DNA of 64,000 nt from contig JAYWIR010000045.1 in NCBI GenBank assembly GCA_036172245.1, positions 806,001 to 870,000 on the forward strand. Direction: 5' to 3'. The position numbers and the translations under genes were made by a program. Position 1 is the stretch's first letter. Each line of letters starts with the position of its first letter. This document shows, piece by piece, positions 27,583 through 53,329 of this stretch. This DNA comes from Raillietiella orientalis. Taxonomy: Eukaryota. The notes under the pieces are model-generated. The model was not told where the DNA came from. It was given only the letters and a program-made list of their open reading frames with translations, and made no database searches.

Positions 27583-27595
27583 ATGCCTCATAAAG
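27583..27595 (+). CDS. Pax6: Pax6 first coding mini-exon (MPHK + G)
   Basis: ATG CCT CAT AAA G|GTCAG; the phase-1 donor matches the phase-1 acceptor at 27801/27802, giving MPHKGHSGVNQ. An in-frame TGA lies upstream at 27529-27531. Confidence 0.75.
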
Positions 27596-30500
27596 GTCAG
27601 CGGGCGACCCTTTTCCCCCCGCGGGATGCGTCTTCTCCCCTCCCACTTCCTTTCCGGGACGGACTCCTCTGCCAGTCGGTCCCCGCGGCGGCGCGCTCCT
27701 GTAAGCGCATCCGAGTGTACCCCCTTCCTCCCCCTCCCCCAATTCCCCGCGCAATATCCTCCGGAGAGGGAGGGCGACCGGGATCGTTCCCTCGCCCCCA
27801 GGGCACAGCGGCGTCAACCAGCTGGGCGGCGTGTACGTGAACGGGCGCCCCCTCCCGGACTCCACGCGGCACAGGATCGTGGAGCTGGCCCACTCGGGAG
27901 CGCGCCCCTGCGACATCTCCAGGATACTCCAGGTTTCCAACGGCTGCGTCTCCAAAATCCTGGCCAGGTAGGCGCGGGGAGGGGACCTAGGCGGGGAAGA
28001 GGGGCCGGGGAGGTCCCGCCTCCTCCCTCTTCCGGCCCTCCCAGCGCGCTTGGCGCCACCTGGCCCCCTCCTGCCCTTCCAGGTACTACGAAACCGGTTC
28101 CATAAAGCCCAGGGCGATAGGGGGCTCTAAGCCGCGGGTGGCAACCCCCAGCGTGGTCTCTAAGGTCGCCGAATACAAGCGCGAGTGTCCGTCCATCTTC
28201 GCCTGGGAGATCCGCGACCGGCTGCTGTCCGACGGCGTCTGCTCCAGCGAAAACATCCCCAGCGTGAGTATCCCGGGGCAACGACCGCCTCGGCCCCCTC
28301 CCCCATCCTCCTTGCCTTCTCCTCGTGCCCTGCCGGGATGCGGTGGCGGCAGCCGAGGCGTTGTGTCCGGCCGCGCGCCTACCTGCTTCTCTGTGAACGG
28401 AAAAAGGGGAACGACACCCTGGAGGGGAGAGAATGGGGGGGACAGGGAGGCAGGAAGGGGTCCCTCTCACTCCTCTTTCCGAGATTCACCGTCCCGGGAT
28501 CGACCAGCCCTTCTCTTCCTCCATCGCTCCTGAAGGAAGACCCCCGGGAACAGCGGAGGAAAGTCTGGCGACCATCCGTTCCCTTCTTTTCCCTCCGTTC
28601 CTTCCCAGCCGACCCTTCTTTTCCTCGCTTCCGTCTTCGCTTCTGGGCGAGGGGTGGGGGGAGTCCCTGGGATCGCTCCCCGTTTCCACGGAGGAAGAAG
28701 AAAAGGAGCTTCCGGATCATCATCCCTTCCACGGCCAGATCCTCTAGTCATCCCTTCCCTTTCACGCTGCCGGGTTGCGGGCGACATCGCTCTCCCCCAC
28801 TTTCCCTCCCCCCTCTCCCCTCCCTATCCTTTCGCGAGGGCAAAAGCTGAGGCAGGGAACGGCCGCCACCCAGATGGTCTTGCAGAGTGATTCCTGCAGG
28901 GCTTTCTCTTTCATTCTCTTTCTCCCCCGCACCTGTCCCAGCCTTTGTTGGGAAGGGAGAGGTGGGAAACGGCAGCGGGCGTCTCTTCGGAAAATAGAGG
29001 AAGCGCGAGATGACCGGGAAAAGCCGCGTCGCGCGGTCCATGTCCCTCCCGATCTCTGGGAAGCCAAGGAGGAAAGGGTAGAGGCAGGAAACCCTCTCTT
29101 CCCTCCTGTCCCTAACGAGGGCAGCGTTACTCGTCATCACCGAGAACCACCGGATGAGGTCCCCCCTTCCTCCGTCAATCCGCCCTTACCATTCCGCCTG
29201 GCGCTCCTTGGCCCTCCTGCCCACCTCATTCCGAGACCTTCCGGGAGGAAGGGCGCGAAGGATGGTCACTTTTGGGAGGGAAGAGCATCTCGCTCCTTTC
29301 TCCCTTTCTCTCCCTCTTTTCGCACCTGTCCCTCAGTTTCCTTCTGAAAGGCACTGCTCCTCTGGAGGAAATTCGCTCTCCCCTTCGCCTCCCCCTCTCC
29401 TCCCCCCCTACGTTTGTCTCCTCCCGGATCTCCGTGACAACCGAGCATCCTTCCCTCCTTTTTCAGTCTCCCGCGCTCCCCTGGCGCGGTCCTCTCTCCA
29501 GGAGAGAGACAAGATCGCCGCTCGTCCCCGAGCTGCGTCTTCCCCATCGGTCTTACTGACGGACGCGTTGGCACCTTCCGCTTCCGTGACGACATCCAGG
29601 AAGGAGGGAGGAAGGAGAGAAAACTCTTTGCGCTCCTGGTGCTTCCGAGCTCTGGGATGGGCACCTGGAGGTGCCACCGTCTCCATCATCCCCTACTTCT
29701 CCCGTCTTCCCTTCCCACCAGGCCCACACCTGTTTCCCGAACGTGGAGGAGGTCCCCCCTTCCTCGCCCCTCCGCCATTCCACCCCTTTCAGGCTTTTTC
29801 CATGGAGAAGAGGGATTGCTTCCTGGCAAAGAGAGAGGGAAGGGGGGAGGGGTGCAGGCAGTCGGAAGGGAGCGATCGATATCCCTTATCAACCGTCGTC
29901 ACCCGGGAAACCCGCCGCTTCCCGCTAGACGAGATCGGCACAGCGGCCTCCCGTTAGCAGTGCGGCGCTTATCGGTCCTCTGCTGACAGGCTGTGCCTCT
30001 GAGATACGCCGCAGTCTCCGCCCCCTCCCTCTAGACGACCCACCCTCTCGTCCTCCAACGCCATCCTTCCTTCCTTCCGCTCCCTATTTCTTCTCGCTCC
30101 CGCAACTCCTGGGAGCAGCAGCGAGTCCGGATGCACGCGGGCCCAAGAAGTGCCACGGAGAATGCTGCCTGCTGTCCTCCCTCCCGCCGCCTCCTCCCCA
30201 CGGAAGAATGCTGCTCCGAGCGCTCTGGTACTCCCTTCATCACGTCCTTGGCCTCGCCAGCTTCTGCCAGAGTCCGAGAAAAATCTGCCACCCCAGCGGC
30301 TGCTCAGAAGACGGCGGTGGGCCGTCGCCCCTCGCACGCCCTCTGCCCTCGCTTTCTTCCCTTGATCACCGCGCGAAGAGGGCTCGTCCATGACTTCCCC
30401 CCCCCCTCCTCTTCCTATGTGGCGGAAAAGGGAAGGATGGTACTTCCCCTTGCTCTTCCTCTTCCGGGATCTGAGCTCCCGGGTCTCCAGAACACAGGTG

Positions 30501-52400: not shown

Positions 52401-53329
52401 GATGACCTAAGATTTCTGGTTCGTTTTCGGCTCTTTCCGCGGCCGCCGCACGCTGATCCTTCCCAATTTCTTAGGGAGGAACCCTGCTCGAGGAAAAGGA
52501 CCTCCAGGAGATCGGCGTTTACGACTGCTCCCACAGATACTTGATCCTTCACGCCTCCCTGTTCCTTTCTCCCCTTGCCTTGCCACCGGTGCAAAACGTA
52601 CGGGAGTGGCTGTGTATGCTGCGCCTGCCCCAGTATGCAGACTCGTTCGTCAGGGAAGGCTACTTGGATTTCAACTGCATACCCGCCTTGAGCGACGCGG
52701 ACTTGAGGATCCTCGGAGTGCACGTTTCGGGACATCGCAGGAGGATCCTCATTTCCCTGAAGCATTACAAACAGCAGAACTCGACGTCCGCCACGGTGCG
52801 GTCGAGGAAAACGAAACGCCCTCCTCCTCCCCCCTCATATAAATTGTATCTCCGCAACCCTGCTCATCTGATCGTCAGCCCCGTGCACACCCTCTCGCTA
52901 TCTTGGAAGCATCCTCCGGAAGCCTTGATCCGGAGCTGCCAGGAGTATGAAGTTCGCTACGTGGGCGCGGTGATGTACCAGCCGAACGCGAACAGCTTGA
53001 GCTCGTTCAGAGACGCAGTCCAGCACTTGAAAGAATCGGACACCTTGGCGACGGCTGCCGTTATATCTGTGTCCTATTGTGATATTACCTTGCGTCGCCT
53101 CGGGTCACGGGAATTGTTGGTCCAGCTCAACATCAAGCAGGTTCGTTGCGCATGCCAGGATGCGGACGACCTCCGTCACTTCGCGCTCATTGTCTGGGAC
53201 GACGCTCGGTGCCTGCAGTGTTACCATCTCTTCATCGCCTCCACTCTTGATCTTTCTTCAGAAATCCTGATGACTTTTGGGGAGGCTTTCGAAATCGCCT
53301 ATCAGCTCACCTTGCGGTCGGTTAGCTAA
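43340..53329 (+). CDS. ANKS1: Ankyrin repeat and SAM domain-containing protein 1 family adaptor (ANK-SAM-SAM-PTB), full span, about 946 aa
   Basis: join(43340..43446,47638..47718,48021..48177,49601..49881,50040..50266,50314..50413,50465..50639,50692..51033,51149..51260,51946..52224,52294..52418,52475..53329) = 2841 nt in frame. N-terminus [15 protein letters not shown] resembles ANKS1A/B; ankyrin repeats, two SAM domains and a C-terminal PTB ending [11 protein letters not shown]. The central low-complexity exons are less certain. Confidence 0.9.
47638..47718 (+). CDS. ANKS1: ANKS1 ankyrin exon
   Basis: ttttag|T CTG AAG...CAT AG|gtaaat; [27 protein letters not shown]. Confidence 0.9.
48021..48177 (+). 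CDS. ANKS1: ANKS1 ankyrin exon
   Basis: ttttag|C AAA TGT...TTG ACA|gtaaga; [44 protein letters not shown]. Confidence 0.92.
49302..49338. repeat. Poly(T) run in an ANKS1 intron
   Basis: About 37 consecutive T. Confidence 0.9.
49601..49881 (+). CDS. ANKS1: ANKS1 ankyrin exon
   Basis: cttag|AAC AAT GAT...CAT AA|gtgagc; [16 protein letters not shown]...[12 protein letters not shown]...[12 protein letters not shown] (not in the ORF track). Confidence 0.92.
49977..50000. repeat. (TC)n microsatellite in an ANKS1 intron
   Basis: About 12 TC units inside a long polypyrimidine tract upstream of the 50039/50040 acceptor. Confidence 0.85.
50040..51260 (+). CDS. ANKS1: ANKS1 last ankyrin repeat and linker exons (50040-50266, 50314-50413, 50465-50639, 50692-51033, 51149-51260)
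   Basis: [23 protein letters not shown]; Pro-rich [10 protein letters not shown] and PPTPNHPPP; short GT-AG introns with consistent phases. Confidence 0.8.
51946..53329 (+). CDS. ANKS1: ANKS1 SAM1, SAM2 and PTB exons (51946-52224, 52294-52418, 52475-53329)
   Basis: [60 protein letters not shown]...[19 protein letters not shown]...[13 protein letters not shown]...[14 protein letters not shown] at 53327-53329. Confidence 0.92.

Follow-up and report, generated by a model that had tools for sequence, protein, structure and literature searches.

The window analysed here comprises 64,000 nucleotides of contig JAYWIR010000045.1 of Raillietiella orientalis (assembly GCA_036172245.1, positions 806,001 to 870,000, forward strand), and everything observed below comes from this single locus. 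An AT-rich valley lies in the window between GC-rich compartments and contains, or cuts through, a Pax6 gene of the toy type, a probable TM7SF3 gene and an ANKS1-like gene (Table 1). The toy and ANKS1 genes cross the edges of the valley, and the third codon positions of both follow the composition of the DNA that surrounds each exon.

Genes and compositional compartments of the window

The toy gene is represented by a model of seven exons that stays in frame, shows canonical AG/GT splice borders throughout and reaches a stop codon; exon 1 was looked for and was not located. Pfam recognizes the paired box (PF00292) at 102 and 108 bits in the open reading frames (ORFs) at 27,705-27,971 and 27,991-28,533, and the homeodomain (PF00046) at 40 bits in the ORF at 37,771-38,205. 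The combination of a paired domain, a paired-type homeodomain and a Pax6-type C-terminus in one protein identifies Pax6 of the toy/eyeless type, and the linker and C-terminus are those of the arthropod toy type. The protein is 62-68% identical, over about 450 residues, to Pax6/toy of every insect order sampled and has no close relative. In a tree of named sequences only, it forms a long branch within Diptera (SH-like support 99). This placement was rejected because, with catalogue sequences added, toy groups beside those sequences, next to the branchiopods Artemia and Daphnia (95). Given that the trees disagree on this long branch, we retain only an assignment to a lineage of Pancrustacea that is poorly represented among named proteins.

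The gene on the minus strand is probably TM7SF3. The name is not proven, because the match of an ORF fragment to TM7S3_TM198 (PF13886) reaches 24.9 bits, under the 29.2 cut-off, and one word-indexed homology search returned no TM7SF3 homologues. The introns of this gene measure only about 40-70 nt, against 6.6 and 2.8 kb in toy. The two genes are convergent, with stop codons 66 bp apart (38766-38837), so that their 3' untranslated regions must overlap or be very short. TM7SF3 and ANKS1, in turn, are divergent, with start codons 2.7 kb apart. The assignment of ANKS1 is based on Pfam matches to N-terminal Ank, to SAM_1 (twice) and to C-terminal PID, on top database matches named ANKS1A/1B and on an atlas score of 0.94.

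Table 1. Coordinates of genes, compartments and segmentation blocks in the 64-kb window (GC3, GC content of third codon positions)
Feature	Position	Strand	GC or GC3	Remarks
toy/Pax6 exon 2	27802..27967	+	GC3 0.93	paired box, first half
toy/Pax6 exon 3	28083..28263	+	GC3 0.83	paired box, second half
toy/Pax6 exon 4	34902..35136	+	GC3 0.50	linker
toy/Pax6 exon 5	37904..38047	+	GC3 0.32	homeobox start
toy/Pax6 exon 6	38099..38181	+	GC3 0.37	homeobox
toy/Pax6 exon 7	38228..38424	+	GC3 0.51	homeobox end
toy/Pax6 exon 8	38471..38768	+	GC3 0.34	ends ...NYWSRIQ + stop
TM7SF3-like gene (probable)	38835..40671	-		ATG 40,671-40,669, stop 38,837-38,835; several 40-70-nt introns
ANKS1-like gene	43340..53329	+		ankyrin repeats, two SAM domains, PTB
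ANKS1 in-frame coding segments	43340-43444, 47636-47716, 48025-48177, 49607-49882, 50038-50265, 50466-50639, 50692-51018, 52098-52418, 52484-53317	+		
Left GC-rich compartment	1..31503		0.61-0.65	non-coding except toy exons 2-3
GC cliff	31492..31533		0.651 to 0.443	within toy intron 3
AT-rich valley (~18 kb)	31504..49952		mean 0.395	toy exons 4-8, entire TM7SF3-like gene, ANKS1 exons 1-4
Valley floor	42342..44885		0.303	divergent TM7SF3/ANKS1 5' intergenic region, ANKS1 exon 1, start of intron 1; GC-skew sign change
Intermediate compartment	49953..57742		0.549	reached by ramp; ANKS1 exons 5-10
Right GC-rich compartment	57743..64000		0.645, then 0.567 from 61,660	texture as in left compartment; no Pfam match
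Block	1-17,703		0.614	
Block	17,704-31,503		0.651	
Block	31,504-35,641		0.443	
Block	35,642-42,341		0.378	
Block	42,342-44,885		0.303	valley floor
Block	44,886-45,631		0.516	small 746-bp GC island in ANKS1 intron 1
Block	45,632-47,636		0.364	
Block	47,637-49,952		0.450	
Block	49,953-57,742		0.549	
Block	57,743-61,659		0.645	
Block	61,660-64,000		0.567	

The GC content was measured in 1-kb bins and by likelihood segmentation over the entire window. It amounts to 0.57-0.69 across 1-31 kb, 0.30-0.47 across 32-50 kb (0.41 at 32-33 kb, with the minimum of 0.298 at 43-44 kb), 0.48-0.59 across 50-58 kb (0.54-0.59 at 50-53 kb) and 0.58-0.66 across 58-64 kb (0.64-0.66 at 58-61 kb). The strongest break falls at position 31,503, where a change from 0.651 to 0.443 is supported by a gain of 785 log-likelihood (lnL) units and is confined, within 2 lnL units, to 31,492-31,533. 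The break at 49,952, which raises the GC content to 0.549 and is flanked by ANKS1 exons 4 and 5, gains 540 units, and an additional break at 57,742 leads to 0.645. Multi-kilobase, fairly uniform segments divided by significant breaks are a property of isochore-like compositional domains, and the phenomenon is of this already known kind.

The two edges of the valley differ in shape. To the left, the GC content rises outward from the floor through 0.30, 0.38 and 0.44 and then jumps to 0.65 in a cliff of about 40 bp, across which 50-bp bins change from 0.60-0.74 on the GC-rich side to 0.44-0.50; to the right, a stepwise ramp extends over about 15 kb without any comparable cliff. The floor coincides with the stretch between the start codons of TM7SF3 (40,671, on the minus strand) and ANKS1 (43,340). 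A preliminary description of the window had postulated mirror-image gradients centred on the divergent TM7SF3/ANKS1 promoter; the position of the floor over the divergent 5' region agrees with that picture, whereas the symmetry is broken by the cliff on one side only.

Some additional features of the window can be recorded here. The GC island within the AT-rich floor (44886-45631) may be an alternative promoter or enhancer; its ORFs have no Pfam match. The ANKS1 intron at the right-hand break (49883-50037) consists almost entirely of pyrimidines, with T runs, one C run and a (CT)12 array, and a T37 run is present at 49,302-49,338. The repeats found in the window are limited to short purine-rich tandem arrays, one two-copy direct repeat of 129 nt and one inverted pair of 85 nt, and none of them lies at a compartment border. 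The direct repeat, the only sizeable one in the window, is located in the GC-rich desert upstream of toy (23356-23484 and 24460-24588; 91% identical, 1,104 bp apart). No Rfam family at gathering score and no tRNA gene was detected in the window.

Codon usage, strand skews and DNA texture

For each exon or coding segment, GC3 was calculated from the in-frame third positions and compared with the GC content of the flanking non-coding DNA within 750 bp. Across 19 coding segments, the two values are correlated, with Pearson r=0.86 and Spearman 0.77. In toy, GC3 drops from 0.93 and 0.83 in exons 2-3 to 0.32-0.51 in exons 4-8 or, in pooled counts, from 100/114 to 130/315 third positions (Fisher p=8e-19). 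ANKS1 changes in the opposite direction, from 0.20, 0.37, 0.35 and 0.39 in exons 1 to 4 to 0.59, 0.86, 0.56, 0.75 and 0.72 in exons 5, 6, 7, 9 and 10, respectively (35/113 in exons 1-3 vs 435/628 in exons 5-10; Fisher p=3e-14). The values for TM7SF3, 0.26-0.40, come from ORF-level segments and are approximate owing to the small introns. The GC content of four-fold degenerate sites (GC4) is 0.88-0.94 in the GC-rich part, compared to 0.19-0.46 in the valley.

In toy exons 2-3, four-fold sites carry C (0.56) more often than G (0.34), with little A (0.03) or T (0.06), and the adjoining intron shows the same preference (C 0.37, G 0.26), which indicates that the bias is not codon-specific. Translational selection implies a codon bias that is independent of the composition of nearby introns; here, the exons copy the introns in GC level as well as in C>G skew, so that codon selection at the mRNA level cannot be the cause. 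These results support a regional rather than translational regime for the switch in composition. The valley that cuts two genes and flips their synonymous codon usage, as proposed in the preliminary description, is thus borne out by the GC profile, the segmentation and the GC3 counts, and so is its argument, from introns following the same trend, against codon selection on the mRNA. The exons that it named exist with canonical AG/GT borders, and recounting reproduces its hand counts to within one codon: 0.93 for toy 27804-27965 (54 codons), 0.32 for toy 37906-38046 (47 codons), 0.20 for ANKS1 43340-43444 (35 codons) and 0.86 for ANKS1 50466-50639 (58 codons).

The bias may also reach the Pax6 protein. 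Replacements were scored where at least 80% of 84 arthropod Pax6 proteins agree in the alignment. Of 108 such sites in toy exons 2-3, 7 differ; three of these replacements (I to V twice, K to R) raise the GC content of the codon and none lowers it, compared to 10 that raise and 16 that lower it among the 34 differences at 201 conserved sites in exons 4-8. In the paired domain, a K-to-R and a Q-to-H replacement lie next to each other, both in the GC-rich exons, at positions where all 84 proteins are identical. With counts this small, the spillover of the composition bias into the protein is suggestive and not significant.

The strand skews bear on transcription. Plus-strand GC skew ranges from -0.06 to -0.10 over 39-43 kb and from +0.16 to +0.18 over 43-45 kb; in ANKS1 intron 1, T exceeds A and the G+T fraction is 0.55-0.59, and the 3' half of TM7SF3 (39-40 kb) carries a G+T excess on its own sense strand. 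Where the two genes diverge in their 5' region, at 42-43 kb, the sign of the sense-strand G+T (keto) skew that characterizes TM7SF3 and 5' ANKS1 is reversed. Transcription-associated strand asymmetry is known in mammals, and the pattern is consistent with germline transcription of these two housekeeping-type genes at the core of the valley. The description of the valley as germline-transcribed holds for TM7SF3 and 5' ANKS1; it does not extend to the toy introns, which show no G+T skew although the valley continues for 7 kb into toy (31.5-38.8 kb). Outside the valley, the plus strand is largely purine-rich at 12-24 kb (0.55-0.61) and pyrimidine-rich at 27-31.5 kb (0.41-0.45), with GC skew and AT skew of the same sign, unlike the G+T skew of the valley genes.

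The compartments differ not only in GC content. In the GC-rich non-coding DNA (1-31503 and 57743-64000), the observed/expected ratios are 1.4-1.56 for GA/TC (1.04 in the valley), 1.27-1.34 for AG/CT (0.92), 0.31-0.35 for TA (0.65) and 0.73-0.86 for CA/TG (1.15), and purine-purine plus pyrimidine-pyrimidine steps make up 0.60-0.66 of all steps (0.54). This DNA contains purine or pyrimidine tracts of up to 49 nt, alternating (CG)n and G-quadruplex (G4) motifs; tracts of at least 20 nt occur at 2.5 per kb vs 0.38 in the valley, and G4 motifs at 1.3 vs 0.16 per kb. Its commonest words are CCTCCC and GGAGGA, and the hexamers GCGCGC and CGCGCG reach 5 times the first-order Markov expectation. In 3-kb windows, the mean dinucleotide distance between compartments is 0.248, compared to 0.09-0.11 within them.

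The GC-rich flanks look non-coding and devoid of recognizable genes. No Pfam match was found for any of 150 ORFs out of the 161 flank ORFs of at least 130 residues (including 0/123 in the left flank), and these ORFs show no codon periodicity. In the search for hidden genes or transposable elements, another 86 ORFs likewise yielded no Pfam match; they comprise 71 of the 81 valley ORFs of at least 70 residues (10 that overlap known exons were dropped), the 11 remaining flank ORFs and four extras, one of which duplicates an ORF among the 150. The excess of long ORFs is explained by composition, given that second-order Markov shuffles reproduce their number (124 ORFs of at least 130 residues in 27.7 kb, compared to 113 +/- 6.5).

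Possible origins of the compartments

An assembly artefact would mean that two genomes, haplotypes or paralogous loci were wrongly joined near 31.5 kb. A join would account for a cliff of only about 40 bp and for dinucleotide signatures that differ between the two sides as much as those of unrelated genomes might. However, the cliff separates toy exon 3 from exon 4, and yet these join in frame at the ancestral Pax6 intron position and the seven-exon model runs on to its stop, and on the right side the composition changes gradually within one continuous ANKS1 gene, which renders a chimera unlikely, as the preliminary description had argued from splicing. Furthermore, no N, repeat or transposable element domain was found at the break, and the GC-rich side, with no codon periodicity and no Pfam match among 150 ORFs, is neither prokaryote-like nor a source of foreign coding content. 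Neither half of toy is closer than the other to any of the relatives compared, which speaks against a join, although this comparison is uninformative as a test for a chimera. We consider an artefact very unlikely. The decay of CpG in a germline-methylated domain is harder still to sustain as a cause of the valley, for which the preliminary description had suggested, as an example, a germline-transcribed, methylated domain. Such decay predicts CpG ratios well below 1 and an excess of TpG/CpA across the domain, whereas the observed/expected ratio for CpG is 0.7-1.1 in every 2-kb bin of the window, 0.96 in the AT-rich half of toy intron 3, 0.92 in toy intron 4, 0.83 in ANKS1 intron 1 and 0.87 in toy exons 4-8. 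With CpG kept in the valley introns, methylation decay cannot make the valley, and since non-coding DNA has a CpG ratio near 1, a methylated genome of the vertebrate type is ruled out. Clear depletion is limited to the coding ORFs of the TM7SF3-like gene (0.42, with TG/CA at 1.33), where 1.7 kb of coding sequence contains 23 CpG vs about 55 expected from base composition. This is a possible footprint of gene-body methylation in a housekeeping gene; the deficit of about 30 is worth 2-4 GC points, compared to the 25-35 of the valley, and CpG decay as the source of the valley can hardly be credited.

The explanation that we favour, with confidence no better than even, is a stable landscape of recombination-linked bias in the fixation of AT-to-GC changes, in which GC-biased gene conversion (gBGC) would be weak at the housekeeping pair and strong in the flanks. 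The 18-kb AT-rich block and its flanks, about 30 kb of gene-free DNA with 61-65% GC on one side and the right GC-rich block on the other, are genuine compartments of one genome. At the centre of the AT-rich block lie the 5' ends of two compact genes of the housekeeping type (TM7SF3-like and ANKS1), which are probably expressed in the germline. Weakly constrained sites, namely introns, four-fold sites and third positions, all adopt the local composition and, because toy and ANKS1 span the edges, their synonymous codon usage changes exon by exon. The most likely mechanism appears to be that the fixation of AT-to-GC changes has long differed between regions, through gene conversion that would follow a stable recombination landscape and act against an AT-biased mutational background. 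Recombination would be low in the valley, the TM7SF3/ANKS1 pair would be active and possibly methylated in the germline, and an extra process that generates tracts may operate in the GC-rich DNA. The 40-bp cliff could represent a fixed domain border or, alternatively, the scar left when a later deletion or insertion in the intron eliminated a ramp.

The compartments, the covariation of exons and introns, the intact splicing and the lack of a methylation signature are direct observations. The proposed fixation bias is in accord with the tracking of flanking non-coding GC by GC3 and GC4, with CpG ratios near 1 in both compartments, as expected without CpG loss, with the three GC-raising and no GC-lowering replacements in the GC-rich toy exons, and with the flip of the G+T skew in TM7SF3/ANKS1 at 42-43 kb. 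Several considerations weigh against it. The sequence does not separate gene conversion from regional mutation bias and represents a single locus; conversion tracts would be expected to leave a less abrupt edge than the 40-bp cliff; and the amino acid trend is not significant on the present counts. The compartments also differ beyond GC content: purine-purine plus pyrimidine-pyrimidine steps amount to 0.625-0.657 in the GC-rich DNA vs 0.538 in the valley, the TA ratio is 0.35 vs 0.65, and the dinucleotide distance is larger between compartments than within them. Because transitions keep purines purines, a drive of AT-to-GC transitions acting on valley-like DNA cannot create the texture of the GC-rich DNA, so a second process must also act, be it selection, context-dependent mutation or the expansion of tracts.

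A regional bias in mutation alone, with no part played by gene conversion, predicts the same covariation of exons and introns. Replication timing, the choice of repair pathway or transcription-associated deamination would drive the valley towards AT or the flanks towards GC and so set different mutational equilibria. The strand skews, which show transcription-linked asymmetric mutation in TM7SF3 and ANKS1, fit this explanation, and the dinucleotide texture of the flanks suits context-dependent mutation better than a plain fixation bias. However, the valley runs for 7 kb into toy, where the G+T skew is missing. In addition, spontaneous mutation is AT-biased in most animals, and a mutational equilibrium of 63-65% GC would be unusual; we regard this alternative as rather unlikely. 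Selection on the texture of the DNA itself would mean that the desert in which a developmental regulator lies has a chromatin or regulatory role, for instance as a Polycomb-type or nucleosome-organizing domain, with the exons dragged along. The densities of purine/pyrimidine runs and G4 motifs and the fivefold excess of (CG)3 are what such selection might leave behind, and the flanks adjoin toy and are free of recognizable genes. Nevertheless, such selection does not explain four-fold sites of exons at 0.88-0.94 GC, and the right GC-rich block lies beyond ANKS1 and, within the window, is not beside a developmental gene; it therefore appears improbable as the principal cause.

Relation to known systems and significance

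Fixation bias through gene conversion has precedents. In animals at large, gBGC is described as widespread and as the principal driver of AT<->GC changes (10.1101/184283), and the GC landscapes of 150 insect genomes have been attributed to it in a study that names gerbils as a case of local extreme GC altering proteins (PMC10978632). In the honeybee, reduced crossover in germline-methylated genes and very strong gBGC, which affects transitions and favours CpG, have been reported (Wallberg et al. 2015, PMC4406589). The honeybee resembles the present case in being an arthropod in which codon usage tracks regional GC and CpG is not depleted in the GC-rich parts; its germline-methylated housekeeping genes in low-recombination regions might have a parallel here. 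The present locus stands apart in the 63-65% GC maintained over 30 kb, in the switch inside single genes within 40 bp and in the tract-rich texture of its own. The codon and amino acid usage of GC-poor and GC-rich regions of Apis was reportedly the subject of work by Jorgensen et al. in 2007.

Gerbils provide a parallel around developmental genes: their localized runaway GC is clustered, and a homeobox region belongs to these clusters (Pracana et al. 2020, PMC7403616). As in toy, extreme GC is local, surrounds developmental homeobox genes and touches synonymous sites; it also reaches some non-synonymous sites, as may be the case in toy. In gerbils, it is attributed to persistent recombination hotspots and demonstrated by lineage-specific substitution rates, at the megabase scale in a mammal, as opposed to about 10-30 kb and unpolarized substitutions in a pancrustacean. 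Hargreaves et al. are said to have described the gerbil runaway GC in 2017. Steps in composition at introns along genes are known in plants, where gBGC has been invoked for the outer regions of genes (Ressayre et al. 2015, PMC4684703). Plant genes share with toy and ANKS1 the exon-by-exon change in nucleotide and codon composition; however, the plant pattern is a 5'-3' gradient that follows gene structure in general, whereas here GC falls along toy and rises along ANKS1, in line with genomic position, and the introns take part. In mammals, sharp isochore borders, such as those between class II and class III of the major histocompatibility complex and in the NF1 region, also present an abrupt GC transition in a contiguous, functional region. 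Those borders delimit domains of hundreds of kilobases, are smaller in amplitude than the border described here and coincide with replication-timing switches. For crustaceans or dipterans, the open-access literature yielded no matching case of GC compartments, which is not proof of absence.

What is striking in this locus is the amplitude of the change, from GC3 of 0.93 to 0.32 in one gene, together with the 40-bp border and the distinct texture. In practical terms, GC-rich halves of genes are easily missed by short-read assemblies, codon usage statistics mislead, and the flanks are full of spurious ORFs. Should such compartments prove to be genome-wide, they would constitute a natural experiment in which exons of the same gene, with the same expression, lie at GC3 of 0.9 and 0.3, so that neutral regional forces can be separated from codon selection. 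They would also gauge the regional force on a highly conserved protein, as exemplified by the two paired-domain replacements at sites that do not vary among 84 relatives. By means of the 40-bp cliff, the delimiting factor could be mapped.

On a broader and more speculative view, which we put forward tentatively, the genome would be divided into insulated substitution compartments on the kilobase scale, with 'runaway-GC' DNA rich in non-B motifs around developmental regulators, AT-rich refuges around germline-expressed housekeeping genes and intronic borders of about 40 bp. If this is true, the compartments would be the invertebrate counterpart of the runaway GC of gerbils and birds, and it would be a chromatin border, not gene structure, that places recombination-linked repair.

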